The translations under genes were made by a program, and so were the position numbers. From Phycisphaerales bacterium (GTDB taxonomy: Bacteria; Planctomycetota; Phycisphaerae; Sedimentisphaerales; Anaerobacaceae): 64,000 nt of DNA. Location: the NCBI GenBank assembly GCA_039683175.1, contig JBDKRX010000019.1, positions 49,423 through 113,422 on the forward strand, written 5' to 3'. Shown piece after piece: positions 1,962 through 49,575 of this stretch; position 1 is the first letter of the stretch, and each line of letters starts with the position of its first letter. The notes below the pieces were generated by a model that was given only the letters and a program-made list of their open reading frames with translations, was not told where the DNA came from and searched no databases.

Positions 1962-4262
1962 ATGAGAAACGGATGTCACGGTAGAAATCGCAGGTCGGTC
2001 GCAGCCATTCTGCTGGCCGTAGTTCTTTTGACCTCGGGCGCCATGGCGGTCACCAGCAAGATCACGCGCCAGGCGAGCAGCAAGGACCTGCTGGCGGGCG
2101 AGAGCGACGACGTCATCGTGACCTCTCGTGGGACCATCCAGCTCGGGCGGTCGGCCAAGGTGCTCGCCACGGAGTTCGACGGGGTCTGGTCCGTCAACTG
2201 CATCGCCGTCAGCGGGGGCACCATTTTTGTAGGGACCAGCCCGAACGGCGATATCTACAAGTACAGCCTGGACAAGCTCTCCAAGATCTATCCGCCCGAG
2301 GGGGAGGATTCGCCCGGGAAGCCGCCGGCCAAGACGGAGGAACCCCAGAGCCAGGCCGGGGCCGACGCCAATGAGACCGGGCAGGTCGTCAAGACCGATG
2401 CGCCGCTCACGAATCAGCACATCTTCGCCATGGCGGTGGATGTGGCCGGGCGGCTCCTGGCCGGCATCAGCGGCGCCAAGTGCCGGCTCTGCCGGTACGA
2501 AGCGGGCAAGATGGAAACCATCTTCGAGCCCAACGACGCCACCTACATCTTCGACATCGAGCTCGACAACGTCGGAAATATCTATCTGGGCACCGGGCCG
2601 GAGGGCAAGGTCTACGCGCTCGATCCCTCGGGCAAAGTGGCCCAGCTCGTGTACGACAGTCCGGACAAGAACATCCTGACCGTCGCGGCCGGCAAGGACG
2701 GCGCGATCTACGCCGGCAGCGACACCCGCGGGCTGGTCTACAAGATCAATCCCCGCAACAAGACCGCCACGGTGGTCTACGACAGCGACGAGCCCGAGAT
2801 CAGCTCGCTGCTCGTTGCGGACGGCGCCCCGGGTTCGGGCGGATACCTCTACGCGACCGCCACGGCGGCCAATGTCGTGGAAACGGAGCAGCGGTTCGCT
2901 GCCCAGCAGACGACTTCAGGGCGGCCCGAAGCCAAGGAAGGGGACAAGAAATCCGACGGCGGCGACGGCGTCGTGACCCTGAAGATCGCCAATACGAGCG
3001 CCCCGTCCGGCGGCAAAGCCCCGCAGGCGCCGCAGCGTCCCGCCCCGAAGCCTCCACAGAAGCCCGGCACCGCCAGCTATCTCTATCGGATCGACAAACA
3101 GGGGTACGTCAGCGAGGTCTTCAGCGAGCCGGCAGTGTTCTTGTGCGTGGCCGGCCAGGACGGCAAGGTATTGGTCGGCTCAGGCAACGATGCACAGTTG
3201 TTCCTCGTGGACAGCGAAGCCGAGCGCCAAGCCGTCGTCTACGAGGATGAGCAGGCCAGCCAGATCTCCGCTTTGGCGGTTTCCGAGCAGGATGTCTACA
3301 TCGGCACTGCGAATCCCCCGAGGTTGGTCCTGTTGTCGTCGGCCTATGCCTCGCAAGGATCGTATCAATCCGACCTGATCGACGCGGGCCAGCCCGCCAA
3401 ATGGGGCAAGCTCCAGATTGACGCCGACATCCCGCGAGGCTGCAAGGTCCTCGCTGCCTCGCGAAGCGGCAACGTCAAGGACGTGAACGACCCGACGTTC
3501 TCCGAGTGGACCGAGCTGGCGGAGGTCACGGAGCCGATCCAGTTGCGATGCCCGGTCGGGCGGTTCTGCCAGTATAAGCTCGTGCTGGAGACGCAGGATG
3601 GGCAGAAGACGCCGCTGGTCCGTGAGATCGCGGTCGCCAGCACCGTGCCGAACCTGGCCCCGCGGATCGAAACGGTGGACACCAGCCGGCTCTCGAGCCC
3701 CGGCAAGGAGGGCGTCTTCAAGATCAGCTTCAAGGCCGCCGACGAGAACGACGACAAGCTCCTCTACAAGCTGGACTTCCGGCGGGTCGGACGGACGACT
3801 TGGATCGAGATGCAGGAGGAGCTCGAAGCCGACAACTGCGAGTGGGACAGCAAGACCGTCGAGGACGGCCGCTATGAGATCCGCGTCGTGGCCGACGACG
3901 CGCGAAGCAATACGACGGCCACAAAACTCACCGGCAGCCGGATCAGCGAACCGATTGTCGTGGACAACACCGGCCCGACGATCCGCAAATACGCGATCGA
4001 GAAGAATGGCAAGGCGGCTACCTTGAAGCTCCAGGTCACCGACGAGCTGAGCGTCATCGGTTCGCTGGAGTACACCATCGACAGCAGCGACGAGTGGAAG
4101 GGCACAGTGCCCGACGACTTTGTGTTCGATACGACCGATGAGAGCTTCACGATCGCGACCGAGGACCTCGAGCCGGGCGAGCACATCATCGCGGTGAGGA
4201 TCAAGGACGCCGTGGAGAACGCCACGTACAAGACCTTCGAGCTGAGCGTGCTCGGGAACTGA
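1962..4262 (+). CDS. secreted beta-propeller repeat protein with C-terminal Ig-like region, function unknown
   Basis: 766-codon ORF with AGGAG 6 nt upstream of the ATG and a signal-anchor (VAAILLAVVLLTSGAMA). Recurring G-x-IY-x-G ... G-x-VY blade-like motifs and a Pro/Ala-rich linker. Starts 26 nt after the upstream gene. Confidence 0.6.
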   Translation: MRNGCHGRNRRSVAAILLAVVLLTSGAMAVTSKITRQASSKDLLAGESDDVIVTSRGTIQLGRSAKVLATEFDGVWSVNCIAVSGGTIFVGTSPNGDIYKYSLDKLSKIYPPEGEDSPGKPPAKTEEPQSQAGADANETGQVVKTDAPLTNQHIFAMAVDVAGRLLAGISGAKCRLCRYEAGKMETIFEPNDATYIFDIELDNVGNIYLGTGPEGKVYALDPSGKVAQLVYDSPDKNILTVAAGKDGAIYAGSDTRGLVYKINPRNKTATVVYDSDEPEISSLLVADGAPGSGGYLYATATAANVVETEQRFAAQQTTSGRPEAKEGDKKSDGGDGVVTLKIANTSAPSGGKAPQAPQRPAPKPPQKPGTASYLYRIDKQGYVSEVFSEPAVFLCVAGQDGKVLVGSGNDAQLFLVDSEAERQAVVYEDEQASQISALAVSEQDVYIGTANPPRLVLLSSAYASQGSYQSDLIDAGQPAKWGKLQIDADIPRGCKVLAASRSGNVKDVNDPTFSEWTELAEVTEPIQLRCPVGRFCQYKLVLETQDGQKTPLVREIAVASTVPNLAPRIETVDTSRLSSPGKEGVFKISFKAADENDDKLLYKLDFRRVGRTTWIEMQEELEADNCEWDSKTVEDGRYEIRVVADDARSNTTATKLTGSRISEPIVVDNTGPTIRKYAIEKNGKAATLKLQVTDELSVIGSLEYTIDSSDEWKGTVPDDFVFDTTDESFTIATEDLEPGEHIIAVRIKDAVENATYKTFELSVLGN

Positions 4263-4274
4263 CCGGCCGGAGGC

Positions 4275-4432
4275 CGGAAATCCGAAATTCGAAGCACGAA
4301 ATGGGAAACAAATCCAAAGGACCGAAATTCAAATGACGGAAACGCTATCGCCCGTCGAATGATCCGTTTCGAATTCTGGATTCGGATCATTCGTGCTTGT
4401 TTCGGATTTCGAAATTCGGATTTCGGGTTTTC
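4275..4432. repeat. heptad-periodic palindromic intergenic element, copy A
   Basis: Left arm GGAAATCCGAAATTCGAAGCACGAAATGGGAAACAAATCCAAAGGACCGAAATTCAAATGACGGAAACG, ~19-nt centre, right arm CCGTTTCGAATTCTGGATTCGGATCATTCGTGCTTGTTTCGGATTTCGAAATTCGGATTTCGGG. The arms are imperfect reverse complements. Related copies lie near 14029, 19211, 47603, 49081 and 58141. Confidence 0.9.
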
Positions 4433-4435
4433 AGC

Positions 4436-5299
4436 ATGGTGCGAAAGATCGAATTCGAGCAGATCGGCAAGACGGTTCAATCGCTCTGCGTGGCGGCCTG
4501 TCACGAATTGTCTGCGGATGTGCTCGATGCGCTGGAGCTTGCCGCCCGGCGAGAATCCAACCCGCACGCCGCGAAGATCCTTGAGCAGCTTGTCGAGAAC
4601 GCCCGCATCGCGTCGCAGGACATGATCCCCCTGTGCCAGGACACCGGTCTGACCGTGGTCTTCGTCGAGCAGGGGGCCGGGGTCGAGATCTCGCCCGCCG
4701 GACCCGGTCGGCAAACCCTGGTCGAGGCGATCCACGAGGGTGTTCGAGCCGGCTACGAGTCGGGATACCTTCGCAAGAGCGTCGTCGCAGATCCGCTGAA
4801 CGCCCGCAAAAACACCGGGACGAACACGCCTGCTGTTGTCCACCTCGCGATCGTGCCGGGCGACAAGCTGAAGCTGTCGCTCATGGCCAAAGGCGGCGGC
4901 TGCGAGAACAAGAGCCAGTTCCGTATGTTCCGGCCCACCTCGGATCGCGACCAGATCCTGGACTGGGTGACCGACGTGGTTCGCCAGGCGGGAGCCGATG
5001 CATGCCCACCTTTCGTGGTGGGCGTCGGCATCGGAGGCAACTTCGAGCTCAGTTGCCTGCTGAGCAAGAAGGCGCTCCTGCGAAACCTGAAGGACCGCCA
5101 TGCGGATGCATTCTATGCCAAGATGGAGCGAGACCTGCTTGTACGAATCAACGCCTCCGGGGTAGGCCCGCAGGGTCTCGGCGGCGACACCACCGCCTTG
5201 GGCGTGCTCATCGAGACCGCGCCGTGTCACATCGCGTCCCTGCCGGTCGCGGTCAACATCGAGTGTCACAGCCATCGGCACAAGACCGCAGTTCTCTGA
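4436..5299 (+). CDS. Fe-S hydro-lyase, class I fumarate hydratase / L(+)-tartrate dehydratase alpha-type subunit
   Basis: Motifs IPLCQDTG, KGGGCENKS and PPFVVGVGIGG are typical of the FumA/TtdA alpha domain. The ORF-track start 4397 lies inside repeat copy A; the first credible ATG is 4436 (MVRKIEF). Confidence 0.8.
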   Translation: MVRKIEFEQIGKTVQSLCVAACHELSADVLDALELAARRESNPHAAKILEQLVENARIASQDMIPLCQDTGLTVVFVEQGAGVEISPAGPGRQTLVEAIHEGVRAGYESGYLRKSVVADPLNARKNTGTNTPAVVHLAIVPGDKLKLSLMAKGGGCENKSQFRMFRPTSDRDQILDWVTDVVRQAGADACPPFVVGVGIGGNFELSCLLSKKALLRNLKDRHADAFYAKMERDLLVRINASGVGPQGLGGDTTALGVLIETAPCHIASLPVAVNIECHSHRHKTAVL

Positions 5300-5300
5300 A

Positions 5301-5378
5301 TTGATGAAGGATGATTGATTATTGATGGTTGAGACGGCTGCTGGACGGTCTCGTCTCAATCATCCATTATCCATCATC
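5301..5378. terminator. long imperfect hairpin between convergent genes (possible bidirectional terminator), arms made of GATNATT heptads
   Basis: TTGATGAAGGATGATTGATTATTGATGGTTGAGACG ... CGTCTCAATCATCCATTATCCATCATCAATCC. Lies between the stop at 5299 (+) and the stop at 5377 (-). No clear U-tract. Confidence 0.5.
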
Positions 5379-6165
5379 AATCCTTGAAGGAGGTCATCCA
5401 TTCCGGCCAGTCCGGCAGCGAGCAGTCGAGCTCGAACCGCTTGCTCCACTTCTGTCGCCAGAGGGCCTTGAGCCATATCCTGTCGACGTGGTAATCGACA
5501 TAGACGCAATTGACGGCCTGCTGATGGCGATTCATGCAGAAGCGGTTCATCGCGTTGTCGTCGCCCGGATAGCGGGCGGCGCGATCGTCGGCCTTGGGCG
5601 GCGTGTCCGTGTTGTCGGGCCAGGCACACCAGAACCAGCAGTCCAGGAACAACGGGATCTGGGCAGCGCCCTTGACGTTGGGGGTCTTCCAGAAGTACTG
5701 GGCCGGCTTGCCATAGAGGGTCCCGCCGGACTCGATATTCTGATAAACCCAGCCGTTGATGCCGTAACTGCCCCACGTGCCTATGGGCCGGTTTCCGCTG
5801 GCGGCTACGATGCCCCAGGACGTGAGCGCATCGCCGCCCAGCGTGAGGGTATCGGTTGCGCCCTCGGGGGCCGCGATCTTCTCGGCCATCGGGCAGACGC
5901 GGAACTCATCGTCTTTGTGGTAGTAGTCGTACAGCAGGTCGATCCAGCGGCCCGAATCCCGGCCTCGCCTGGGGAACATGCCGTTGTTGTCGTCGGTGTA
6001 CGTGGCCCAGATGATGCCCCATTGCTTGAGGTTGGACTGGCACACGACGGACCGGGCCTGCTTGCGGACCCGTTGCAGCGCGGGCATCAGGATCGCCATC
6101 AAGATTGCGATGACGGCGATCACGACCAACAGCTCGATCAGCGTAAAGGCCCGCGATTTCCTCAT
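5377..6165 (-). CDS. prepilin-type N-terminal cleavage/methylation domain protein, DUF1559 (H-X9-DG) family
   Basis: N-terminus [30 protein letters not shown] and C-terminal [27 protein letters not shown] upstream of the ATG at 6165; the ORF-track start 6207 is probably too long. Confidence 0.85.
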
Positions 6166-6258
6166 GGTCCCATCCTCTCTTGGATCGTCGCACTTCCGCT
6201 TGTACACTCGATGCTATCCCTCCGGCCTGACTTCTCGCGTTCGTGAGCGGTCCGGCCA

Positions 6259-7098
6259 TCACTTGGCGACGTTCGTCGGCCCCGGATAGTGCTGATCGAG
6301 CCAGTCCATGTCCACGTTCTCCGGGCTGAAGGGCACGTTCTTGCCGTAGCCCTTGGCCGCCGCCTCGCCTCGGCTCATGCAGTAGACGATCGTTCGTTTA
6401 TCGTCCCATTTCTTGCGGTCGGCGTGGCCGTCCATGAAGCTGAACGTGCAGGCGTCGCTGTGGAAGATGCCCAACGGGTCCCACAGAGAGTTGGTGTATG
6501 GGTTGTACGACCAGCCGTCGTGATTGTAGTTGCCCGCGCCGCCGTCGTAGATATCCTCGACGAACAGCATCTTGTTCGCCTGTTCCTTGAAGGTGAACAG
6601 CTTCTTGGGGTCCTTGGTCTGGGTTGCCCGCAGGTAGTCCGGGAACGAGTAGCTGCGGTAGATGCAGTATTGCAGCGTCGTCCCGAGACTCGTGCCGAGG
6701 TTCTTGCGGTTGTCGCCAGGACAGTGGTAGACCTTGACTTCCTTGAGATAGGGATACAGCGCGCCGGCCTTGAGCCCGTTGTATCGCTGCTCGAGCGTCA
6801 CGTCGCCGCTATTCATCCGCGTGATGCTCCCTCCTGCGTACTCGAGCGGCGGCATCACCCACGGCGGAACGCCGTTGACCGTGTCGTACCCCGCCCAGCC
6901 CCCGACCATGGAGCCCCCATTCTCATCCGCATACATGATATACGCCTGGGCGAGGGACCGCTGGTTCGCCAGGCAGGTGATGCCCCGCGCCTGCTCCTTC
7001 GCGATCTTGAGTGCGGGCATCAGGATCGCCATGAGGATGGCGATGACCGCGATGACGACGAGCAACTCGATGAGAGTGAAAGCCTTGCGCGTATCCAT
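6259..7098 (-). CDS. prepilin-type N-terminal cleavage/methylation domain protein, DUF1559 (H-X9-DG) family
   Basis: [30 protein letters not shown] and C-terminal FHSDACTFSFMDGHAD. GAGGAG RBS upstream of the ATG at 7098. Confidence 0.85.
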   Translation of the reverse strand: MDTRKAFTLIELLVVIAVIAILMAILMPALKIAKEQARGITCLANQRSLAQAYIMYADENGGSMVGGWAGYDTVNGVPPWVMPPLEYAGGSITRMNSGDVTLEQRYNGLKAGALYPYLKEVKVYHCPGDNRKNLGTSLGTTLQYCIYRSYSFPDYLRATQTKDPKKLFTFKEQANKMLFVEDIYDGGAGNYNHDGWSYNPYTNSLWDPLGIFHSDACTFSFMDGHADRKKWDDKRTIVYCMSRGEAAAKGYGKNVPFSPENVDMDWLDQHYPGPTNVAK

Positions 7099-9368: not shown

Positions 9369-10310
9369 TCAATCGCCTTTGTGGAGCCGGGCGTAGAGGG
9401 TCGCCATTTCGACGTACTGGTCAGGATGCAGTTCCTCCGGTCGGCGGGTGGGGTCGATGGCCAATTGCTCGAATATTCTCGGCCAGATATCCCGGCCGCC
9501 CAGCTCCGGCGGGGCCTGCTTGGCGCAGGCGCGGAGCATTTTTCGCCGGTGGCCCAGGAACAGGCCAATCACTGCACTGAAAAGGTCTATATCTGCGATC
9601 CGGCGGCTCTTTTGTTCGTCGCGCCGGTAGCGGACGATAGCGGAATCCACCTGGGGTGGCGGCCAAAATGCCCCCGGCGGCAGGGTCCGGAGCATCTCGA
9701 CCTCGCCGGTGGCCTGCAGGAAGATGCTGAGCGTTCCATAATCCCGCCCGCCCGGCGGGGCGGTCATCCGCTGTGCGACCTCCTTCTGAACGGTGACGCA
9801 CATCGCTTCGACGATCAGAGGGCCTTTCACCAGGTTGATCATGACAGGCGAGGCCACGTCATAGGGAAGGTTCGCGACGAGCACGAGCCGCGATCCGTCA
9901 GGTGTCGGTCCCGTTTCTTCAAGTCTCGCTCGTGCAGCGGCCACGGCCTGCGCCACAGCCGGAGCGATCGATCCTTTGTTCGAGAGCGCATCCGTGTTGA
10001 GAATCTGCACGTTTGCAGCGCCGGCTGTTCGTGATTGGGCTATTTCTGAAACCGTTTTGTCTATTTCGACGGCTACGACCTGTCCTGCTCTCTCGGCCAG
10101 AGCCTCCGTGAGCGAGCCCGTCCCGGGACCGATCTCCAGGACGACATCGGTCGGGCGGATCTGTGCCGAATCGACCAGCAGACGCATCAGGTTCAGGTCC
10201 ACGAGGAAATGCTGCCCGAGCCGGCGATTGGGAGCGACGCCGGCAGAGGAAAGCAGTTCCTGGATTTGGCGCTTTGTCTGCATAGGACCGATAGGACGCA
10301 TAGGACTCAT
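9369..10310 (-). CDS. rsmA: 16S rRNA (adenine1518/1519-N6)-dimethyltransferase
   Basis: LGQHFLVD, VLEIGPGTGSLT and NLPY motifs. Conserved pdxA-ksgA order. The true start may be the ATG at 10283 (MQTKRQI), because the first 9 codons are encoded by a 9-mer tandem repeat. Confidence 0.9.
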   Translation of the reverse strand: MSPMRPIGPMQTKRQIQELLSSAGVAPNRRLGQHFLVDLNLMRLLVDSAQIRPTDVVLEIGPGTGSLTEALAERAGQVVAVEIDKTVSEIAQSRTAGAANVQILNTDALSNKGSIAPAVAQAVAAARARLEETGPTPDGSRLVLVANLPYDVASPVMINLVKGPLIVEAMCVTVQKEVAQRMTAPPGGRDYGTLSIFLQATGEVEMLRTLPPGAFWPPPQVDSAIVRYRRDEQKSRRIADIDLFSAVIGLFLGHRRKMLRACAKQAPPELGGRDIWPRIFEQLAIDPTRRPEELHPDQYVEMATLYARLHKGD

Positions 10311-10325
10311 GGGACCTATGGTGTG
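10281..10325. repeat. tandem 9-mer array (CATAGGACC GATAGGACG CATAGGACT CATGGGACC TATGG), copy K1
   Basis: Period-9 repeat read directly. Lies just downstream of the pdxA stop (10335) and over the annotated rsmA start. Related arrays lie near 19992 and 22561. Confidence 0.75.
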
Positions 10326-10334
10326 CAGCCTGCC

Positions 10335-11435
10335 TTATGCTGCGTTGCCGGGTTCTTCGCGTGCGGCGCCGTTGATCGGGCGGGCGCCGCTCGTCGTGCC
10401 GGCGAGGGCCAGGGACCGGCGGGTCTTGGCCATCTGGATCGCGGCCATGATGGCAGACTTCATGCTTGATGGATTCGCCAAATTGCGTCCGGCGATGTCG
10501 AAGGCCGTGCCGTGCGCGGGCGAGGTCCGCACGACCGGGATGCCGATCGTGATGTTCACCGCATGCTCGAAGTCCATCAGCTTGACCGGGATCATCCCCT
10601 GGTCGTGGTACATCGCGACGACGGCGTCGAACTCGCCGTGGACGGCCTTCACGAACAGGGCGTCCGCCGGGATGGGGCCGGTGCAGTTGATTCCCTGCTC
10701 CTGGGCCAGCAGGATGGCCGGAGCGATGATCCGCTGCTCCTCGTCGCCGAACTGGCCCTGCTCGCCCGCGTGCGGATTCAAGGCGGCCACGCCGATGTGC
10801 GGGTTCTCGATGCCGAAATAGTCCTTCAATGCGTCGTTGAGCAGGTCGATCGGCTCGAAGACGCAGCCGATGGTGAACTTGTTGCGAACGTCGAAGAGGC
10901 CCAGGTGGATCGTTGCCAGCGCCACCTTCAGCGGTCCGGCGACGAACATCATCGCCTTGCGGGGGGCCTTGCACTTCTGGGCGAACAGCTCCGTGTGGCC
11001 GGGCCAGGGGGCGTCGGCCATCTTCCAGCTTGCCTTGCTGATCGGGGCGGTCACGATCGCGTCGATGATCCCTTCTTTAGCGGCCGCGATTGCATCGGTG
11101 CAGAACTTGATCGAGGCTTCGCCCGCGACTCGACTGGGCTCCTTCAGCCACGGGGGCACGCTGTACTCGTCGTAGTCTGCAACGACGACCTTGTAGGGGT
11201 ACTCCCGGCTGATCTTCTCATGCTGGTGCCGACCCCAGAAGGGCTCGATCTCCGCCCGGGCCGCGGCGAAGCAGAGCTGCACGTTCATGCCGAAGACGAT
11301 GAATTTGGCCGCCCGACGGACCTCCGGATCGGCCAGTGCCTTGACTACCACCTCCGGCCCGATGCCTGCGGCATCTCCCATGGTCACCCCGATGACCATC
11401 TGCTCGGAGATCGAATTGTGGTTGCCCTTATTCAT
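10335..11435 (-). CDS. pdxA: 4-hydroxythreonine-4-phosphate dehydrogenase
   Basis: GDAAGIGPEVVVKAL, HTELF, NPHAGE and TSPAHGTAFDIAG motifs. Confidence 0.9.
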   Translation of the reverse strand: MNKGNHNSISEQMVIGVTMGDAAGIGPEVVVKALADPEVRRAAKFIVFGMNVQLCFAAARAEIEPFWGRHQHEKISREYPYKVVVADYDEYSVPPWLKEPSRVAGEASIKFCTDAIAAAKEGIIDAIVTAPISKASWKMADAPWPGHTELFAQKCKAPRKAMMFVAGPLKVALATIHLGLFDVRNKFTIGCVFEPIDLLNDALKDYFGIENPHIGVAALNPHAGEQGQFGDEEQRIIAPAILLAQEQGINCTGPIPADALFVKAVHGEFDAVVAMYHDQGMIPVKLMDFEHAVNITIGIPVVRTSPAHGTAFDIAGRNLANPSSMKSAIMAAIQMAKTRRSLALAGTTSGARPINGAAREEPGNAA

Positions 11436-11528
11436 TTACGAATTACGATTTACGAATTACGATTTACGACTCAGATCCCGGCTCGGCGAGAGCCAAATCG
11501 CAAATCATAAATCGTAAATCACAAATCC
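11436..11528. repeat. palindromic spacer element with TTACGAN heptad arms
   Basis: TTTACGAATTACGATTTACGAATTACGATTTACGAC ... AAATCGCAAATCATAAATCGTAAATCACAAATCC. Fills the whole ribE-pdxA spacer. The arms are imperfect reverse complements. Confidence 0.8.
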
Positions 11529-12176
11529 TCAAAAGCCCAACTGGCGCAATCGCTCGACGGTCAACGGTTGCTGCTTGGGCAGCAGGACTTCCAGTTGCCG
11601 CCGGACGATCTTGACGAGTATATCGACCTCGATATTGACCCGCCCGCCGATCCGTGCGTTGCCGAGCGTGGTCCTGTTCAGGGTTTCGGGAATCGCCGCC
11701 ACGCGGAAACTCCCGGCATCCATTCCGGCGATGGTCAGGCTGACGCCGTCGACCGCCACCGAGCCTTTTGCGACCATCTGGTCCAACAGTTCCGGTCCGG
11801 CGGCAAACTCTATATCGGCAAATTCACCGAGCTTCCTAACCGCCCGGATTGTGGCGACGCCGTCCACATGGCCCTGCACGATGTGGCCGCCGAACCGGTC
11901 GGTGGCCTTCATCGCCCGTTCGATGTTCACCCTCGCGCCGGGCCGCAAGCCCGCCAGCGAGGATCTCTCCAGCGTTTCCGGACTCAATCCGAAGGTCGCC
12001 ACGACGCCCTGCAGATGGGTAACGGTCAGGCAGACCCCGCTGACGGCGACGCTGTCGCCGACCCTGCAATCCGCAGCCAGATCGCCCAACACCACGACGA
12101 GCGAGCCGCCCCCGGACCCGCCTCCCGGCGAGACCGACCTCACCTCGCACACAGATTCTATAAGTCCTGTGAACAT
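11529..12176 (-). CDS. ribE: riboflavin synthase alpha chain
   Basis: MFTGLIE N-terminus and the duplicated lumazine-binding repeat (GDSVAVSGVCLTV / GSVAVDGVSLTI). Confidence 0.9.
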   Translation of the reverse strand: MFTGLIESVCEVRSVSPGGGSGGGSLVVVLGDLAADCRVGDSVAVSGVCLTVTHLQGVVATFGLSPETLERSSLAGLRPGARVNIERAMKATDRFGGHIVQGHVDGVATIRAVRKLGEFADIEFAAGPELLDQMVAKGSVAVDGVSLTIAGMDAGSFRVAAIPETLNRTTLGNARIGGRVNIEVDILVKIVRRQLEVLLPKQQPLTVERLRQLGF

Positions 12177-13144: not shown

Positions 13145-14028
13145 CAGAGACGCTCGCAGAGACGATGCCCGTAATCTCCATCACCGCCGATTGCCTGCCG
13201 GAGGCGTGGGAGAAGGCCGTGTTGGCCGTCTGGGACCAGGGCTATGAGGTGAAGACCCAGTACGACAAGCCCGACGATCCGCCGAGCAGGGACGCGACGG
13301 TGATGATCGCCGTGACGAACCCATTCAACGAGCCTCGGATTCACAAGAACTTCCCCGGCGGCCCTGAGGAGCTCGAAGCCTACCGCCAGGAGGTGGTCGG
13401 CGGCATTCACGACCACTGGATCGATCCGGCGGCCGGCAAGTGGACCTATACCTATCATGAAAGGCTGTTCGCGTATCGCCCGGTCGAGGACCTGCGAAAC
13501 CCCAAGAGTCCCAAGCCCTTCCGGGCGGTCAACCAGATCCAGTACATCATCGATTGTCTCAGTGAGGCAGGCCACACCCGCCGGGCCCAGGCGGTCACCT
13601 GGATGCCCACGGCCGACCCGCAGACGGACGATCCGCCGTGTTTGCAGCGGATCTGGTGCAGGCTTGTGGCCGACGAGGGGGGGCAGTGGACGCTGAACAT
13701 GAATACGCACTGGCGAAGCCGGGACCTGTACAAAGCCTGGTTCATGAACGTCTACGCGCTGACCGACCTTCAGCGAACGATTGCCGACGCGATTGCCCAA
13801 AAGCGGGGCGAGCCGGTCCGGGTGGGCCGATACGTCGATATCAGCGACTCGCTGCACATCTACGGCAGCTACTTCCGCGATGCCGCCGTGGAGATCGAGA
13901 AGATGCGAAAGACCCCCTTTGCCCAGCGAGCTTGGGAGAGCAACCATCCCGCCTTCGAGATGATGACGCAGGAGGCCAGGGAGAAGCTGGCCCGCGATCC
14001 CGACTGGTTCGCAAAAGCCCGGGGCTAA
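13141..14028 (+). CDS. thymidylate synthase (ThyA) superfamily protein, divergent
   Basis: ThyA-like core motifs in the canonical order: TYTYHERL, DDPPCLQRIWC (Cys nucleophile region), HWRSRDLYKAWFMNVYAL and ISDSLHIYGSY. Confidence 0.65.
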   Translation: MTETLAETMPVISITADCLPEAWEKAVLAVWDQGYEVKTQYDKPDDPPSRDATVMIAVTNPFNEPRIHKNFPGGPEELEAYRQEVVGGIHDHWIDPAAGKWTYTYHERLFAYRPVEDLRNPKSPKPFRAVNQIQYIIDCLSEAGHTRRAQAVTWMPTADPQTDDPPCLQRIWCRLVADEGGQWTLNMNTHWRSRDLYKAWFMNVYALTDLQRTIADAIAQKRGEPVRVGRYVDISDSLHIYGSYFRDAAVEIEKMRKTPFAQRAWESNHPAFEMMTQEAREKLARDPDWFAKARG

Positions 14029-14184
14029 GAAGCACGAATGTCGAAATTCGAAATCCGAAACAAATTCAAAGGACCGAAGTCCAAATGACCGAAACGCTGT
14101 CGCCCATCCGGATGTCCGTTTTGGATTTCGAGCTTTGAGCCTTCGTGCTTGTTTCGAATTTCGAAATTCGGATTTCGAATTTAC
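14029..14184. repeat. heptad-periodic palindromic intergenic element, copy B
   Basis: GAAGCACGAATGTCGAAATTCGAAATCCGAAACAAATTCAAAGGACCGAAGTCCAAATGACCGAAACG ... CCGTTTTGGATTTCGAGCTTTGAGCCTTCGTGCTTGTTTCGAATTTCGAAATTCGGATTTCGAA. Begins directly after the TAA stop at 14028. Confidence 0.9.
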
Positions 14185-14202
14185 GACAGGTAGGAGTATT
14201 GA

Positions 14203-15097: not shown

Positions 15098-15128
15098 GCT
15101 TCAAACTTCGAACTTGAAACTTCATACC
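15098..15128. repeat. direct heptad repeat CTTCAAA CTTCGAA CTTGAAA CTTCATA
   Basis: Four period-7 units read directly, about 40 nt after the PPIase stop. Confidence 0.6.
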
Positions 15129-19174: not shown

Positions 19175-19210
19175 GAAAGTGGGGTTCGGAAAGATGGGAG
19201 ATCGGCGGAA

Positions 19211-19368
19211 GTCTGAAATTCGAAGCACGAAACCCGAAATCCGAAACAAATTCCAAGGACCGAAATTCCAATGACCGAAACGCGGTCGCCCGCCGGGGTG
19301 CCGTTTGGGATTTTGGATTTCGAGCCTTCGTGTTTGTTTCGGATTTCGAGTTTCGGATTTCGTGCTTG
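19211..19368. repeat. heptad-periodic palindromic intergenic element, copy C
   Basis: CTGAAATTCGAAGCACGAAACCCGAAATCCGAAACAAATTCCAAGGACCGAAATTCCAATGACCGAAACG ... CCGTTTGGGATTTTGGATTTCGAGCCTTCGTGTTTGTTTCGGATTTCGAGTTTCGGATTTCGTGCTTG. Confidence 0.9.
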
Positions 19369-19393
19369 TCCGGCAAGGAGGCAGACGGCTCAC

Positions 19394-20954: not shown

Positions 20955-21059
20955 TTACACTCTGCTGTTGGATCCCATCTGCTGCTCCAGGCGCTGTCGG
21001 ACGCACGATCAGACCCAATTGTAAATGGTAAATGCTGAATAGTAAATTCGCCTTGTTCT

Positions 21060-22560: not shown

Positions 22561-22612
22561 GCATGGAACCGCAGCATGGGACCGATAGGACCCGTGGGAC
22601 GTATGGGATGAA
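22561..22612. repeat. tandem 9-mer array (CATGGGACC GATAGGACC CGTGGGACG TATGGGATG), copy K2
   Basis: Period-9 units of the same type as K1, 30-80 nt downstream of the glyA stop (22641). Confidence 0.7.
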
Positions 22613-27952: not shown

Positions 27953-30007
27953 TTGATATACGGGGTTGCCGTGACTGCCAGGAAGATCCTGTCGATTGCG
28001 ATCTTATTGCTCTGGCCGACCATATCCCTATGGGCTGACGCAGAGGGCTTTGCGGACGCCAACCTGGACGAATCGCCTCCGGATGGGGATCTCTTTGACA
28101 TGTCCATCGAGGAGTTGATGGACGTTCGCGTGGACACGGTATACGGTGCGTCGAAACACGTCCAGACGCTCACGGAGGCGCCCGCGTCGGTCACGATTAT
28201 CACCGCCGAGGAGATCCGCAGGTATGGCTATCGGACTCTGGCAGAAATCCTGCGGAGCGCCCCCGGCTTCTACCTCAACTATGACCGAAACTACTACTAC
28301 ATGGGGACGCGGGGGTTCCGGCGGCCGGGGGACTATGACACGCGCATTCTCTTGTTGATCGACGGCCACCGGATCAACAACAACGTCGGCGATGCGCCGA
28401 CGTTTGGCACCGACTTCCTGTTGGATACGGACCTGATCGAGAAGGTGGAGATCATCCGCGGCCCTGGGTCGGCGCTCTACGGCAGCAACGCCGTGCTCGC
28501 CGTGATCAACGTCATTACCAAGCGAGGGAGAGACGTCAAGGGCCTGGAACTATCCGGACGGACCGGCAGTTTCGACACGCAGAAGGCCCGGATCACCTAC
28601 GGTGACCGCTTCGACAAGGGTATTGAACTGCTGCTATCGGCAAGCACGTACAACAGCGATGGTCCGGAACTGTACTTCCAGGAGTTCGACAGCCCCGAGA
28701 CATACAACGGGCATGTGGACAACGACGACGATCAGTTTGACAACCTCGTTGCCCATCTGTCCTGGGGCGACCTCTCGTTTTTGCTCGCCCACACCGGGCG
28801 CGAAAAGGGCATTCCGACGGCGCCCTGGGATGCCGTTTTCGGCGATCCCCGGACAAGGGTTTGGGACGATTCGACGGTGGCGGGTCTGACCTGGACCCGT
28901 GCCCTGTCTGAGCGATACTCCGTGCTTGCTCGCGCGTCATACGGTCACTCCAACTACGACGGACAATACGTCTACGACTACACGGAAGATGAGGACGACC
29001 CCTACATCGTCGTCAACAGGGACTACTGGAAGGGCCGCTGGTGGGAGGGGGAGTTGCAGGTCACCGGCAGCCCGGTCGACAGGCACACAATTACCGCGGG
29101 TACGGAGATCCGCTACAATGCCCGCCAGGATCAGGCCTGCTGGGACGAAGTGGTCTACCTGGACGACTCCAGGCACAGCCACAACTGGGGTGTGTACGTC
29201 CAGGACGAATTCAAGCTGCTGGAGAGATTGACGCTCGTCGGCGGGGTGCGCCACGACGGCTACAGCACATTCGGCGACGCCACGAATCCACGTCTGGCGC
29301 TGATCTACGATCTGTTCGAGGACACGACATTGAAGCTCCTCTACGGCAAGGCGTTCCGTGCGCCGAATGCCTATGAACTGTACTATCACGACGGGGGCTC
29401 CACGCAGAAAGCCGCCATCGATCTGGATCCCGAGAAGATTCAGACCTATGAGGTGGTTCTCGAGCGGCAGTTCAACCGCAATCTCCGCGCGACCGCCAGC
29501 GGTTTCCACTATGTCATGGAGGATCTCATCGACCAGTACACGGATCCGGACGATGGGCTGCTGGTGTTCAGGAACCTCGGCGAGGTCCAGACCCTCGGCG
29601 CCGAGCTGGCCCTGCACGGCCGATGGGATTGCGGCCTGCAATTGCGCGCGAGCTATTCCTACGCGGAGGCCGAGGATCAAGACAGCGGCGAGACCCTGGT
29701 GGATTCGCCCGAGCATCTGGTGAAGTGGAATCTGCTGGTGCCCGTCGTGCGTGACCGGCTCTTTGCCGGCTTGGAGGTCTTCTATGACAGCAAGGCGAAG
29801 ACCCTGGCCGGCGACTACGCCGACGACTTCACACTGACGAACCTGACGGTCACGTACCTGAACGCGTCAAAACGGCTCGAAATCGCTGCCAGCGTGTACA
29901 ACCTCTTCGACGTGGACTATGCATTCCCGGGCTTTGGGGAGCATACCCAGGATACGATCGAACAGGATGGACGGACATTCCGGGTCGGACTGACCTATCG
30001 CTTCTGA
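27953..30007 (+). CDS. TonB-dependent receptor-like outer-membrane beta-barrel, paralog 1
   Basis: Signal peptide and LFDMSIEELMDVRVDTVYGASK. Plug motifs (APASVTIITAEEI, DGHRINN, IEIIRGPGSALYGSNA). Terminal RVGLTYRF. The conserved GTG at 27971 is an alternative start. Confidence 0.8.
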   Translation: MIYGVAVTARKILSIAILLLWPTISLWADAEGFADANLDESPPDGDLFDMSIEELMDVRVDTVYGASKHVQTLTEAPASVTIITAEEIRRYGYRTLAEILRSAPGFYLNYDRNYYYMGTRGFRRPGDYDTRILLLIDGHRINNNVGDAPTFGTDFLLDTDLIEKVEIIRGPGSALYGSNAVLAVINVITKRGRDVKGLELSGRTGSFDTQKARITYGDRFDKGIELLLSASTYNSDGPELYFQEFDSPETYNGHVDNDDDQFDNLVAHLSWGDLSFLLAHTGREKGIPTAPWDAVFGDPRTRVWDDSTVAGLTWTRALSERYSVLARASYGHSNYDGQYVYDYTEDEDDPYIVVNRDYWKGRWWEGELQVTGSPVDRHTITAGTEIRYNARQDQACWDEVVYLDDSRHSHNWGVYVQDEFKLLERLTLVGGVRHDGYSTFGDATNPRLALIYDLFEDTTLKLLYGKAFRAPNAYELYYHDGGSTQKAAIDLDPEKIQTYEVVLERQFNRNLRATASGFHYVMEDLIDQYTDPDDGLLVFRNLGEVQTLGAELALHGRWDCGLQLRASYSYAEAEDQDSGETLVDSPEHLVKWNLLVPVVRDRLFAGLEVFYDSKAKTLAGDYADDFTLTNLTVTYLNASKRLEIAASVYNLFDVDYAFPGFGEHTQDTIEQDGRTFRVGLTYRF

Positions 30008-30035
30008 CCCCACACGACTTCTGATGGGCTCCGTT

Positions 30036-30159
30036 GATCTCGGACCTTGCATCCTGCAACATCCTGCAAGAAGGCTCGTAATCCGGTTCTTCGCTTTTGC
30101 CCCTCCATTCGGCCCGGAGACCGGACGATATGCGCTGCGGCCGCAGAGGGTCTTGCGGC
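30036..30159 (+). promoter_or_regulatory. conserved inter-paralog leader block 1
   Basis: GATCTCGGACCTT..GAAGGCTCGTAATCCGGTT..CTCCATT..GGAGACCGGACGATA..GGCCGCAGAGGGTCTTGCGGC aligns with 32267-32390. Confidence 0.5.
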
Positions 30160-30198
30160 GATGGGTCACTGCCTTTTCGAACGACACACGGAGTTGCT

Positions 30199-32238
30199 GT
30201 GGGTGCCCGGAAGATCCTGTGGATCGTGATTCTGTTGTTTGGGCTGAGCGCCTCGACGCGAGCCGGCGCGGACGGTCTTTCGTCCGTCGAACCGAACGGT
30301 GCATCGGAGGGCGACGATCTCTTCGAGATGTCTATCGAGGAACTGATGGACGTTCGCATCGACACCGTGTATGGCGCCTCGAAACACGCCCAACGGCTTG
30401 ACGACGCGCCCGCGTCGGTCACCGTCGTGACTGCCGAGGAAATCCACAAGTACGGCTATCGTACTCTGGCGGAGATCCTGCGAAGCGCCCCCGGTTTCTA
30501 CATCAACTATGACCGGATCTATCACTCCATAGGAACCCGCGGGTTCCGCAGGCCGGGCGATTTCGACACGCGAATTCTCGTGCTGATCGATGGCCACAGA
30601 GTCAACGAGAACATTGCAGTCGCTCCCCCCGTCGGCGTCGAATTCCCGCTGGACGTGGAACTGATCGAGAAGGTTGAGATCATCCGAGGTCCGGGCTCCT
30701 CGCTCTACGGCAGCAACGCACTGCTTGCGGTCGTCAACGTCATCACCAAACGAGGCGAAGAGATCAACGGCCTGGAAGCGGCCGGCCAGACAGGCAGCTT
30801 CGATGCATACAAAGGCCGGATCACCTACGGCAATCTCCTCGGGAAGGATGTCGATCTGCTGCTGTCTGCAAGCACGTATTCCAGCGACGGTCCAACCCTG
30901 TACTTCAAGGAGTTCGACACGCCTGAAACGAACAACGGCTCGGTGAAAAACGACGACGATCGGTGTGATCGTGCCGTTGCCAACGTATCCTGGGGTGATT
31001 TCTCGTTCATGCTGGTGCATGGCGAGCGGGAAAAGGGTGTCCCCACGGCGCCGTACCATACGGTGTTCGGCGATTCGCGAACGCGGGTCTACAGCGATGG
31101 AACGATGGCCGGCTTGACCTGGACCCGTGAGTTGTCCGAACGCTACACGGTGAAGGCGCGTCTTGCCTATGGCCGCTTCGACTATGATGGACGGTATGCC
31201 GTCGACCATGCGGAAGAACCCGAGGAGCCCGATCTCGCCATCAACGGCGATTCCTGGAGAGGCCGCTGGTGGGAGGGGGAGCTGGAGGTGATGGGCAGCC
31301 CGGTCGAAGGACACACCCTGACCGCCGGCACGGAGTTTCGCTACAACGCCCGACAGGACCAGACCAACTGGAGCGCCGATGTGGTCTATCTGGATGACTC
31401 CAGACACAGCCACAACTGGGGTGTCTACGTTCAGGATGAGATGAGACTGCTCGAGAAGTTGACCTTTGTCGGGGGTGTGCGCCATGACGAGTACCGGACA
31501 TTCGGCGGCTCCACGAACCCTCGCTTGGGGCTGATCTATGATTTCTTTGACCAGACCACGTTGAAGCTTCTCTATGGCCGGGCGTTCCGTGCGCCGTCTG
31601 CCTATGAGTTGTACTACCAGGACGGGGGGCAGAGCCAACAAGCACCCGACGACCTGGAGCCCGAGACGATCCAGACATACGAGGCGATCGTGGAACGGCA
31701 GCTCAACCGCAATCTCCTGGCGACCGCCGGCGGATTCTATTACGTCATGGAGGATCTGATTGACCAGTACCTGGATCCGGCTGACGGATTGCTGGTGTTC
31801 AGGAATCTCGGCGAGGTCCAGGCCGAGGGTATCGAGTTGGCGCTCCGCGGCCGGTGGGAGGGGGGCCTGCAATCCCGCGTGAGCTACTCGTACGTCGAGG
31901 CGAGGGACGAGACCGCCGACGAGGCCCTGGCGAACTCGCCGGAGCACTTGGTGAAGCTGGGTCTCATCAAGCCGGTGGTGCCGGAGCGGCTCTTCGCCGG
32001 GCTCGAGGTCCTCTATGACAGCAAGGCGAAGACCCTGGCCGGCGACTACGCGAACGACTTCACCCTGACGAATCTGACGCTCACGTATGTGAGCGCCTCG
32101 AAACGGCTGGAAATCGCCGCCAGCGTATACAACCTCTTCGACGTGGAGTATGCATTTCCGGGCTCCGGCGGAAACGCCCAGGATGCGATCGAACAGGACG
32201 GACGGACGTTCCGGGTCGGGCTGACCTATCGATTCTGA
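30199..32238 (+). CDS. TonB-dependent receptor-like outer-membrane beta-barrel, paralog 2
   Basis: Same architecture as paralog 1. GTG at 30199 (VGARKILWIVILLFG) is preceded by GGAG and aligns with the starts of the other paralogs. The ORF-track TTG at 30097 is probably too long. Confidence 0.8.
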   Translation: MGARKILWIVILLFGLSASTRAGADGLSSVEPNGASEGDDLFEMSIEELMDVRIDTVYGASKHAQRLDDAPASVTVVTAEEIHKYGYRTLAEILRSAPGFYINYDRIYHSIGTRGFRRPGDFDTRILVLIDGHRVNENIAVAPPVGVEFPLDVELIEKVEIIRGPGSSLYGSNALLAVVNVITKRGEEINGLEAAGQTGSFDAYKGRITYGNLLGKDVDLLLSASTYSSDGPTLYFKEFDTPETNNGSVKNDDDRCDRAVANVSWGDFSFMLVHGEREKGVPTAPYHTVFGDSRTRVYSDGTMAGLTWTRELSERYTVKARLAYGRFDYDGRYAVDHAEEPEEPDLAINGDSWRGRWWEGELEVMGSPVEGHTLTAGTEFRYNARQDQTNWSADVVYLDDSRHSHNWGVYVQDEMRLLEKLTFVGGVRHDEYRTFGGSTNPRLGLIYDFFDQTTLKLLYGRAFRAPSAYELYYQDGGQSQQAPDDLEPETIQTYEAIVERQLNRNLLATAGGFYYVMEDLIDQYLDPADGLLVFRNLGEVQAEGIELALRGRWEGGLQSRVSYSYVEARDETADEALANSPEHLVKLGLIKPVVPERLFAGLEVLYDSKAKTLAGDYANDFTLTNLTLTYVSASKRLEIAASVYNLFDVEYAFPGSGGNAQDAIEQDGRTFRVGLTYRF

Positions 32239-32266
32239 TCGCCTGCAACTTCCGACAAGCCCTGTC

Positions 32267-32390
32267 GATCTCGGACCTTCCATGACGCGACATCGCACTG
32301 GAAGGCCCGTAATCCCGTTCCGCGCCCCGGCTGCTCCATTGCAGGCGGAAACGGGACGATAGGAATTGGGGCCGCAGACGGTCTTGCGGC
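32267..32390 (+). promoter_or_regulatory. conserved inter-paralog leader block 2
   Basis: GATCTCGGACCTT..GAAGGCCCGTAATCCCGTT..CTCCATT..GGAAACGGGACGATA..GGCCGCAGACGGTCTTGCGGC. Confidence 0.5.
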
Positions 32391-32418
32391 CGGGTATGAC
32401 GGTCGTCTGCCGAACGGC

Positions 32419-34708: not shown

Positions 34709-35395
34709 ATGAACAACGTCGGCCCCAGACGTCTGCTTCTGGTCTTTGTGGCGACTCTGATGACTGTGTCGCACAGCGCCGTCGTGCGCGCGGAAGACGC
34801 CATAGACCGAGAATACCGGATCAAGGCCGCGTTCGTGTACAATTTCCTCAAGTTCGTCGAGGGCGGTCGATTCGCTCCGGCACCGGGCAGGAAGAAGGAT
34901 GAAGTGGACCCGAACGATCCCCTCGTGATCGGTGTCCTGGGTGTGCCTCCCTCCCGGATCGCCTTTGAGGAGTTTAACGGCAAACAGATCGGGAACCGGG
35001 CCATCGTCGTCCGCTGGTTCAAGGGTTTCGAGGAACTGGCCGACCAGGACAAGAAGATCCCGGAGCGGCACCCTGACCTCGACCGAATCAAGGCGTGCCA
35101 TGTGCTGTTTCTGTGCCCGTCCGAGAAAGCGTTTCTGCCGCGTGTCCTGCCGCACCTGCGGGAGAGCGGCATGCTGACCGTGGGGGACGTCCCTCTGTTC
35201 CTGGAGAACGGGGGTACGATCAACCTGCTGATCGAGGAGCGGAAGGTCCGATTCGAGATCAACCTGGCGGCGGCGGCCCGCGCCAAGCTGGAGATTCGAT
35301 CCAGCCTGCTTCGGCTGGCGGTAAGGACCATTGAGCACGATCAACTGGCGCAGCAGAAGGATGAGGAGGATCCGGGTGGAGCCGGACGTCCATAA
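34709..35395 (+). CDS. YfiR-like periplasmic protein (DUF4154)
   Basis: Signal peptide (LLLVFVATLMTVSHSAVVRA). YRIKAAFVYNFLKFVEG ... MLTVGD...GGTINLLIEERKVRFEINLAAAARAKLEIRSSLLRLA matches the DUF4154 pattern as I remember it. Confidence 0.75.
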   Translation: MNNVGPRRLLLVFVATLMTVSHSAVVRAEDAIDREYRIKAAFVYNFLKFVEGGRFAPAPGRKKDEVDPNDPLVIGVLGVPPSRIAFEEFNGKQIGNRAIVVRWFKGFEELADQDKKIPERHPDLDRIKACHVLFLCPSEKAFLPRVLPHLRESGMLTVGDVPLFLENGGTINLLIEERKVRFEINLAAAARAKLEIRSSLLRLAVRTIEHDQLAQQKDEEDPGGAGRP

Positions 35396-35408
35396 AATCA
35401 GACGCACG

Positions 35409-37538: not shown

Positions 37539-37556
37539 TGGGAAAGGGTTAGGACG

Positions 37557-39410: not shown

Positions 39411-39428
39411 GTCGAAAACCAACCTTCT

Positions 39429-47589: not shown

Positions 47590-47602
47590 CCGCCTGGGAG
47601 GC

Positions 47603-47777
47603 GGAAATACGAATACCGAAATCCGAAATTCGAAACAAGCACGAATGACCGAAATCTAAAATTCAAAACAACATGATATAGAGGACCGCGAGCATGCGTT
47701 CGCACAGAGTGTTTCGGTCATTTGGGTTTCGAGTTTTGGATTTGTTTCGGATTTCGAGATTCGGATTTCGGATTTTC
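47603..47777. repeat. heptad-periodic palindromic intergenic element, copy D (inverted relative to A-C; contains a gene remnant)
   Basis: Left arm CGAAATCCGAAATTCGAAACAAGCACGAATGACCGAAATCTAAAATTCAAAACAAC. 40-nt centre homologous to the 5' end of the four-helix-bundle ORF in copy E. Right arm GTTTCGGTCATTTGGGTTTCGAGTTTTGGATTTGTTTCGGATTTCGAGATTCGGATTTCGG. Confidence 0.9.
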
Positions 47778-47817
47778 TCAAGAATCAAGGTGTCTGAGAA
47801 CTGACAAGGGACTAACG

Positions 47818-49080
<1,263 letters not shown>

Positions 49081-49553: not shown

Positions 49554-49575
49554 TAAGCGTTTTTGTGAGGATGTT

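Follow-up and report, generated by a model that had tools for sequence, protein, structure and literature searches.

Correia/NEMIS elements in Neisseria, ERIC in enterobacteria, and REP/BIME, RUP and BOX are imperfect palindromes of 120–180 nt that occur in dozens to hundreds of copies and in both orientations. Repeats of the miniature inverted-repeat transposable element (MITE) type lie in transcribed intergenic spacers and are derived by internal deletion from a longer parent, and the hairpin RNA of Correia can be processed by RNase III and that of ERIC by RNase E. A stretch of 64,000 nt from a Phycisphaerales bacterium (GenBank assembly GCA_039683175.1, contig JBDKRX010000019.1, positions 49,423 to 113,422; hereafter the window) contains six copies, A to F, of a palindromic repeat family with arms made of 7-nt units (heptads). 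One of them, copy E, is an intact cassette in which the two arms flank a gene for a four-helix-bundle (4HB) protein, whereas copies A–D are miniature deletion derivatives of this cassette (minis) lacking the open reading frame (ORF), and copy F is a solo arm.

The protein family in question is also found in the intervening sequences (IVSs) of 23S rRNA. In Coxiella burnetii the 23S IVS carries tandem GACAGAT heptamers, variable in repeat number, ahead of the ATG of the S23p gene, whose Shine–Dalgarno (SD) sequence is poor; RNase III cuts at the first heptamer repeat, and IVSs bearing an S23p ORF are also found in Leptospira and Brucella (PMC4990558). Another relative, Avd, is the accessory protein of diversity-generating retroelements (DGRs), such as that of Bordetella phage BPP-1 (PDB 4DWL, 8UB7), and acts on structured RNA adjoining its own gene. 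Outside these settings, a published survey of cas genes encountered PF05635 genes between cmr2 and cmr3, which were read there as functionally associated. Searches of the literature by family names and by arm sequence returned no description of operon-spacer cassettes such as those analysed here.

Copy E and the miniature copies of the window

Copy E occupies the spacer between the leuC stop codon (49078–49080) and the SD sequence and start codon (49576) of leuD (Table 1). Its right arm presents GGTCATT opposite the start-codon region of the 4HB gene, followed by TTTCGGA heptads, and in a fold of the whole element the left arm pairs with the right arm. The preliminary description had listed copy E among the full copies of the repeat; it is more than a longer copy, since its 331-nt interior is a real ORF (49123–49488). 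The predicted protein matches TIGR02436 ('four helix bundle protein') with 68.4 bits (cutoff 24) and PF05635 ('23S rRNA-intervening sequence protein') with 46.4 bits (cutoff 33.8), and no other Pfam or NCBIfam family, transposases included. A profile search retrieved PDB 2RLD ('S23 ribosomal protein family') with E = 6e-22, and the AlphaFold model (pLDDT 90.7) consists of four helices, for which Foldseek ranks 2RLD first, followed by 2GSC (Xcc0516) and by DGR Avd; 2RLD and 2GSC were deposited with five chains each, and 2GSC is described as a homopentamer.

At least 8000 homologues were found, all with E ≤ 0.001, and the best 120 listed are 118–145 residues long (most of them 121) and 70–100% identical. 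An identical protein (100%) from a Phycisphaerales metagenome-assembled genome (MAG) is present in NCBI, and an exact-protein look-up for the LeuC of the window, the 4HB ORF and P0001 gave no record. With a dN/dS of 0.044 between the 4HB gene of the window and that of locus L115 at the same site, the protein is under purifying selection and functional. Ahead of the 4HB ATG, a stretch of 17 nt was inspected in 27 full cassettes and contained an SD-like motif in none, and the folds of full cassettes contain a median of 42 left–right pairs. Since copy E harbours a conserved protein gene and the 160-nt elements derive by deletion from that cassette, the nature of the family changes.

Table 1. Elements, arms and neighbouring hairpins in the window. 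Profile matches are those of nhmmer arm profiles in the 64 kb at E < 1e-3.
Feature	Position	Strand	Profile match	Description
GC hairpin CCGGCCGGAGGCCGG	4263–4277	+		Immediately 3' of upstream stop codon, 5' of copy A
Copy A	4275–4432	−	4268–4436	Mini, interior antisense to host genes, between Reg_prop protein gene and fumarate hydratase alpha gene
Heptad hairpin, ATTGATG-type	5297–5392	+		From TGA of fumarate hydratase alpha to SD of next gene (GAAGGAGG); −37.3 kcal/mol, z = −4.2
Heptad hairpin, TTACGAN/AAATCGN	11430–11530	−		Between two minus-strand genes; nearly perfect 40-bp stem, −43.8 kcal/mol, z = −7.1
Copy B	14029–14186	−	14020–14188	Mini, begins right after TAA of ThyA-like gene
Copy C	19211–19369	−	19206–19371	Mini between nrdR and ATP-cone gene
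GC hairpin CCGCCTGGGAGGCGG	47590–47604	+		Between leuA stop codon and copy D; conserved there in L141, L142 and L148
Copy D	47603–47777	+	47600–47782	Mini, cassette-sense, between leuA and leuC
Copy E, full cassette	49081–49555	+	49079–49559	Left arm, 4HB gene and right arm
Copy E, left arm	49081–49156	+	49079–49156	CGAAAT-type heptads; holds 4HB ATG (49123) and first ~11 codons
4HB gene	49123–49488	+		121 residues, 23S rRNA IVS protein/S23p/Avd-like family
Copy E, right arm	49489–49555	+	49488–49559	Begins at last base of stop codon
Copy F	58138–58205	.	58136–58214	Solo arm relic without partner arm

The six copies of the preliminary description, five paired and one solo, were recovered within a few bases of the coordinates given there, and the arm profiles revealed no seventh site in the 64 kb at E < 1e-3. 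Matches to the 17-mer TTTGTTTCGGATTTCGA (up to three mismatches) number 12 and are confined to these elements, against 0.16 ± 0.37 in dinucleotide-preserving shuffles, none of which reached 12 (0 of 100). A repeat search grouped the six copies in one family (D8), with families D11, D13 and D14 connecting copies A–C and D–E, and TRF detected period-7 arrays in all arms. With the order of the arms conserved, a chance resemblance of low-complexity heptads is ruled out and the repeat family is genuine. The alignment bears out the two orientations previously described, copies A–C being the reverse complement of D–E, and Pfam matches agree with the neighbours then named: a Reg_prop protein and Fumerase for copy A, a ThyA-like protein and a PPIC rotamase for copy B, NrdR and an ATP-cone protein for copy C, and LeuA, LeuC and LeuD for copies D and E. 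The ORF extensions caused by the repeat are spurious, as had been supposed.

The proposal that the heptad-built arms pair also stands, hairpins of ~50–60 bp being possible. The RNA folds of copies A–D have energies between −58 and −85 kcal/mol and z values from −4.4 down to −5.5, a stability that none of 200 shuffles attains; copy F gives no significant hairpin (z = −1.1). As described before, a GC hairpin precedes copy A, which stops 4 nt before the ATG at 4436, and the fold of this copy extends to the fumA start codon. The GC hairpin ahead of copy D is similar, and the two may represent a terminator-like feature of older date or a target. The accompanying suggestion of a ribosome-binding site buried in the arm holds for copy A and fails for copies B, C and E, where an SD-like motif (GGAGG/GAGGA type) lies outside the arm; for the PPIase gene next to copy B this is GGTAGGAG.

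What remains between the arms differs among the minis. Copies A–C keep ~20 nt, and the interior junction of copy A, GCGATAGC followed by GTTTC, is that of an amplified mini class discussed below, while copy D retains the ATG and ~66 nt of the 5' part of the ORF together with its last few bases. On the minus strand, the final ~12 codons (NPKHQIQNKFQ) of a 904-residue PEP-synthase-like gene, along with its stop codon, come from copy F (58162–58205); the repeat has thus remodelled the C-terminus of the protein. In a metagenomic locus, L196 (5270–5330), LeuD likewise reads through an arm of GGGATCA heptads.

Rfam 15 gave no match in the window at its gathering thresholds, and no rRNA, and its E-value mode yielded only chance-level matches to miRNA hairpins. 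A simple scan of the window for promoters and terminators placed no promoter-like or terminator-like site inside any element.

Decay, amplification and spread of the family

The fate of individual copies was followed in 80 metagenomic loci (designated by L numbers) that are orthologous to leuC of the window (81–94% amino-acid identity). At the site of copy E, the leuC–leuD spacer, full cassettes are present in more than 25 loci, among them L115, L141 and L143, minis in the same orientation in L147, L156 and L159, an inverted mini in L144, stubs of ~40 nt made of the outermost heptads of both arms in L142 and L148, and empty spacers of 29–40 nt in L217 and L215. At the site of copy D, the leuA–leuC spacer, the full gene is found in L143, L147, L236 and L237 and a pseudogene in L168; L144 has the deletion junction of copy D itself, with 66 nt of the ORF kept, L142 a larger deletion, L141 an element without its left arm and L157 a stub, and many loci are empty. 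Over both spacers, empty sites occur in L209, L178, L215 and L217. Apart from the junction common to L144 and copy D, the minis of the leu loci carry unique junctions. Wherever a site is filled, no more than 0–2 nt separate the upstream stop codon from the element, whose other end lies just short of the downstream SD sequence (TGAGGA). As read from this series, which runs from full cassette through mini and ~40-nt remnant to empty spacer, minis arise by deletion in place.

Copies also exchange sequence with one another. Although the LeuC genes of L209 and L219 are 99% identical, a tract of ~190 nt, comprising the 3' third of the ORF and the inner right arm, differs between them; this conversion tract attests to recombination between copies. 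Interiors have furthermore been inverted in place, as in L144 at the site of copy E and in copy B when compared with its orthologous site in L002, which is occupied in the opposite orientation.

A second route to minis is apparent from their junctions. Of 99 minis from other genomes, some 45, which come from different MAGs and from loci unrelated to each other, have in common the junction of AAACGG-N12-GCGNCAGC with GTTTCGGTCATT (right side GTTTCGG), and copies A, B and C of the window belong to this class; the minis of Desulfobacterota have another junction in common. Since one deletion junction recurs at unrelated loci, minis also multiply by themselves, in the manner of MITEs, and the comparison thereby reveals, at the level of sequence, the amplification of already deleted ~158-nt copies to new sites. 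The minis have a median length of 159 nt with a peak at 158–160 nt, their ends read 5'-AAATYCGAA...TTCGRATTT-3', and their GC content is 42% regardless of that of the host (36–69%); those of the window have 41–50% in a window of 61% GC. Their orientation is sense in 25 cases, antisense in 20 and symmetric in 19.

The idea of a very abundant repeat was borne out by a search for an exact 29-base arm pattern in the contigs of one genome per species, which found it in at least 114 stretches. Nearly all of these pattern-seeded arms are minis and no 4HB ORF lies beside them, from which the absence of a cassette origin had been considered; this reading was overturned by the leu series and by the contexts of 4HB homologues that have the same arms. 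Longer pattern-seeded elements carry unrelated nested inserts. Among the matches listed, the MAGs are labelled as at least nine phyla and include Planctomycetota (several orders), Desulfobacterota/Thermodesulfobacteriota, Nitrospiraceae, Verrucomicrobia, Victivallales, Acidobacteriota (Acidoferrum, Aminicenantes), Omnitrophota, Hydrogenedentes and one Saccharibacteria bin. Within several MAGs matches are numerous, a closed Desulfobacterales chromosome has two copies within 8 kb, and a Thermodesulfobacteriota MAG contains a full cassette with the same arms and a protein that is 71% identical. The 29-base pattern has no match among viral contigs; the 17-mer occurs in 22 IMG/VR contigs, most of which have true arms. 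In one phage (L129; IMG/VR UViG_3300009529_000226, 5915–7078) a mini at 6374–6544 lies between the head–tail adaptor and Neck1 genes, downstream of the genes for the portal, the protease and the major head protein.

The gene context of 95 classifiable copies was obtained with a home-made caller that reproduces the Pfam-confirmed genes at the window copies. Insertion between co-directional genes, put forward as a property of the repeat, applies to the five paired copies of the window and does not extend to the family, in which 67% of these copies have co-directional, 20% convergent and 12% divergent neighbours; as element-free spacers give 63, 18 and 19%, a restriction to co-directional spacers was rejected. 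The median gap is 9 nt from the upstream stop codon to the element and 18.5 nt from the element to the downstream start codon. Such tight placement is to be expected from purifying selection in short spacers, where an insertion does no harm only if it falls between stop codon and SD sequence. The full cassettes at all five independent sites examined (leuA–leuC, leuC–leuD, trpB–trpA, FlpD–NiFe hydrogenase small subunit, and RR-HD (response regulator)–hypothetical) are co-oriented with the operon genes and tightly sandwiched between them.

A comparison of filled with empty sites, as the preliminary description had proposed, was carried out with two Sedimentisphaerales MAG contigs, L002 and L017, that are syntenic with the window at 80–88% identity (80–90% at the empty sites). 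Empty orthologous sites were indeed found, for instance at copy C, where the spacer of L002 is 64 nt long and lacks the element; the junctions could not be placed because the spacers are too diverged.

The layout of copy E is not limited to elements with CGAAAT-type arms. In eight loci the leuC–leuD spacer holds a gene of a second 4HB subfamily (~30% identity, MQNDK...) in the same arrangement, with AAATCAA/TTTTGAT heptads and with the ATG opposite TTTTGCATTTT, which directly follows its stop codon. In L209 a right-arm stub of this second type stands behind a CGAAAT-type cassette, so the site has been colonized twice, and in L196 a third type (MEIKSYQDLEVWQ...), with GGGATCA/CCTGATC heptads, lies between leuD and leuB. 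The elements of the window therefore represent one family of a wider class, in which a 4HB gene of ~121 codons is enclosed by inverted repeats of ~65–70 nt composed of 7-nt units. The hairpin at 5297–5392 of the window (Table 1) is probably a mini of another 4HB-cassette subfamily.

A number of additional observations concern the leu spacers and the arms. In L115, a 7.5-Mb relative, the leuA–leuC spacer (550–1690) holds, in place of the cassette, a low-GC insert of ~1.1 kb with a long ORF, and the gene calls split leuC into three fragments. In L151 and L152 this spacer is occupied, or the cassette replaced, by another palindromic repeat (TGTCATTGCGAGGAGCGCAGCGACGAAGCAATCTC...GAGATTGCTTCGCTACGCTCGCAATGACA), and an unrelated repeat (GTCATTCCGGCGAAAGCCGGAATCCAG) is nested inside the cassette of L116. 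Foreign DNA seems to settle in the leu spacers quite generally. Within arms in L002 (~4560–4580), L082 (6070–6353), L147 (~3880–3900) and L142 (~2420–2440) lies an inserted GC hairpin of 21 nt, CCCCGC-N4-GCGGGAACGTC or the complement of this sequence. It splits CCGA^AACAA at one position in L002, L147 and L142 and is apparently another, minute insertion element with these arms as its target.

Elsewhere in the window, short period-7 arrays in spacers at 15099–15124 (CTTCAAA, 3.7 units) and 21017–21047 (AATGGTA, 4.4 units), for which no partner arm is evident, may be remnants of further heptad elements. Tandem 9-mers (CATAGGACC/CATGGGACC, ~4 units) in the intergenic regions 10271–10323 and 22574–22608 form a separate small repeat family (D15), and two sets of three tandem paralogous genes of ~2.1–2.3 kb, 65–79% identical in DNA within each set (families D1–D7, D10 and D12), extend over 27953–34473 and 35331–41765.

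Stem pairing and the possible modes of life of the elements

The likeliest explanation of these elements is that of a selfish cassette of the IVS type which resides in the transcripts of its host and which RNase III probably removes as a long stem of double-stranded RNA. Having no promoter, terminator or SD sequence of its own, the cassette would be carried in host transcripts, after the upstream stop codon and ahead of the downstream ribosome-binding site, and its arms would form in the RNA a long, A/U-rich and imperfect duplex containing the 4HB start codon. RNase III probably cuts this duplex, as it does in the 4HB-bearing 23S rRNA IVSs. Insertion into essential operons would then be tolerated because the proposed excision leaves both neighbouring cistrons intact, and the same cut would free the 4HB mRNA. 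Minis, which retain the duplex only, would be largely neutral passengers that drift, flip through recombination between their own arms and decay to stubs of ~40 nt. Spread within genomes would require a factor that acts on the arms, be it the 4HB protein or another enzyme, the arms presumably being the cis-acting part required for spread, whereas spread between phyla would take place by horizontal transfer, with phages as one carrier. This view is favoured by the co-orientation of the full cassettes with their operon genes, by the lack of promoter, terminator and SD signals in the elements and by the stems, whose median of 42 pairs and compensatory heptad changes (described below) speak for selection on pairing.

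Several points weigh against this explanation. Its central steps (cleavage by RNase III, co-transcription and translation of the 4HB gene) we infer from the rRNA IVSs. The start codon is fully paired in just eight of 25 minimum-energy folds, though the ATG lies within the stem. No transposase was found with the cassettes, target-site duplications were not detected (the longest direct repeat across the ends measures 3.35 nt on average, versus 3.16 ± 0.09 nt in permuted pairs), and no flank motif or palindromic target stands convincingly above permutation controls. Co-transcription is less certain for the 20% of copies in convergent and the 12% in divergent spacers, classes that were assigned by a simple gene caller. 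Many of the leu-locus copies are phylogenetically non-independent. The taxon labels are those of the MAG records, some of which may be mis-binned, although the mini subfamilies are lineage-specific, which argues for real residence across phyla. Finally, selection on RNA is no more than hinted at. Since G–U pairs become A–C on the other strand, they can tell selection on RNA from selection on DNA: the strand that is transcribed with the host genes has the better fold in all four minis of the window (31 versus 12 G–U pairs) and in seven of nine leu-locus minis (54 versus 37), and over all loci G–U pairs number 325 versus 268, but there the difference in fold energy is not significant (Wilcoxon p = 0.17), and the arms of full cassettes show no G–U strand asymmetry (110 versus 93). 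The asymmetry could also stem from a mutation bias linked to transcription, so that the pattern amounts to a weak hint of RNA-level selection on the stems.

Part of the same evidence would suit hairpins that the host has domesticated for tuning operon expression through mRNA processing, protection of 3' ends or occlusion and coupling of translation, as proposed for REP/BIME, ERIC and Correia, the cassette origin then being incidental. The exact placement between stop codon and SD sequence, the fold of copy A that reaches the fumA start codon, the better folding of the transcribed strand in the window and leu-locus minis and the conservation of the stems all point in this direction. Indeed, in relatives of lower GC content every heptad is changed from CGAAAT to CTAAAT on the left and from ATTTCG to ATTTAG on the right, which maintains the stems by compensatory G–C to U–A changes at four heptad columns, 97% of the cells being canonical pairs; RNAalifold recovered only the outer stem from the arms of full cassettes, because the inner arms align poorly. 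Nevertheless, one and the same orthologous spacer may be full, mini, stub or empty in close relatives, which fits neutral decay, orientations are random and contexts are distributed as in ordinary spacers, tight placement is expected on the grounds given above, and the strand asymmetry is not significant family-wide. Domestication is therefore regarded as rather unlikely, though it ranks above the other rival explanations.

The concerted change of the entire heptad array on both arms may equally be the mark of an element that functions as DNA, in which the heptads would be iterons and/or the palindrome a cruciform or single-stranded DNA hairpin that is the substrate of a transposase or recombinase (as REP is for RAYT) or of a 4HB pentamer, with the RNA hairpin as a by-product. 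The regular 7-nt periodicity, the specificity of the heptads for each 4HB subfamily, the amplification of minis that have no coding capacity, the inversions in place and conversion tracts, and the lack of G–U strand bias in the full-cassette arms are all in keeping with such a DNA element. On the other hand, at none of the five full sites examined is the cassette linked to a transposase or RAYT-like gene, target-site duplications were not detected, and cleavage of DNA is not a known activity of the 4HB family, whose characterized relative Avd works with a reverse transcriptase and RNA (PDB 8UB7). That full cassettes within operons are strictly in sense orientation likewise speaks for a life style at the RNA level; this alternative appears less probable still than domestication. 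Transcription terminators or attenuators, to which long hairpins 3' of stop codons and the short T runs that end some right arms (for example GGATTTTCTC in copy D) might be ascribed, are highly improbable and were rejected, as was a promoter role: the scan put none of its matches in the elements, the stems, which are long, imperfect and rich in A/U, lack a consistent run of U, and the elements sit, in both orientations, inside operons that need downstream expression (leuA–leuC–leuD, trpB–trpA and the hydrogenase subunits).

The IVS-type cassette living in host transcripts can be developed into a more far-reaching and distinctly speculative proposal, in which the pentameric 4HB protein would recognize the heptad arms specific to its subfamily, as RNA or DNA, and mediate their propagation, possibly aided by a reverse transcriptase of the host, after the manner of Avd in DGRs. 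Heptad-armed 4HB genes would in that case constitute an unrecognized class of transposase-less mobile cassettes, and the ORF-bearing 23S rRNA IVSs would be copies that landed in rRNA. If true, this would account for where IVSs come from and how they move, and the large orphan family TIGR02436 would gain a function.

Significance and relation to known systems

Independently of that proposal, a large orphan family of thousands of genes, annotated as 'four helix bundle protein' or '23S rRNA intervening sequence protein', gains a context as the cargo of a discrete cassette with a recognizable architecture: heptad inverted repeats, a start codon within the stem and no SD sequence. The association of 4HB genes with unrelated operons, as in the cmr2–cmr3 case, is accounted for by their being such cargo. 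The findings also bear on the 30-year-old puzzle of the nature and movement of rRNA intervening sequences; as the elements are multi-copy, exist in intact and decayed forms and have filled and empty orthologous sites, mobility and processing by RNase III become directly testable. In practical terms, the elements break metagenome assemblies, give rise to spurious ORFs and false start codons and extend genuine genes by C-terminal tails (copy F; LeuD in L196), and their exact identity across phyla can mislead binning and the detection of horizontal gene transfer.

The resemblance to the 23S rRNA IVSs is extensive. Both enclose a four-helix-bundle ORF of the PF05635/TIGR02436 family between inverted repeats that form a long stem; as in Coxiella, tandem heptamers of variable number lie 5' of the ATG, with an SD sequence that is poor in the IVS and absent here; and in both the ORF is decayed or deleted in some copies, the GC content is below that of the host and the sequence is regarded as selfish. 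In contrast to the IVSs, which reside in helices 9, 25 or 45 of 23S rRNA, all window copies lie between protein-coding genes or at the end of one, and the family is also present in phage. Many copies are found per genome, instead of one per rrn operon, and they include a large population of ORF-less miniatures that multiply independently. Whereas the Coxiella S23p is degenerating, the protein described here is under strong purifying selection (dN/dS 0.04). Excision by RNase III has been shown for the rRNA IVSs and is inferred for the operon-spacer cassettes.

The 4HB protein also resembles Avd, likewise a four-helix bundle of ~120 residues (Foldseek TM-scores of 0.6–0.76), without sequence similarity detectable by HMMER; in contrast to DGRs, no reverse transcriptase and no template/variable repeat pair lies beside any cassette examined. 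From intrinsic terminators, which combine a short G+C-rich stem with a U tract, the elements differ in that none of them contains a terminator-like match. The likeness to MITEs lies in the short, non-coding copies with terminal inverted repeats and in the single deletion junction common to many loci. Unlike that of MITEs, the parent sharing these ends codes for the 4HB protein alone and for no transposase, the neighbours are housekeeping genes, target-site duplication was not detected and the arms are heptad arrays; and while MITE-type repeats are confined to a genus or family, these elements span phyla and have no Rfam match. Because they do not lie in rRNA, have a parent without a transposase and show no target duplication, the elements are full members of neither group: they act like ORF-bearing 23S rRNA IVSs and look like a MITE family.

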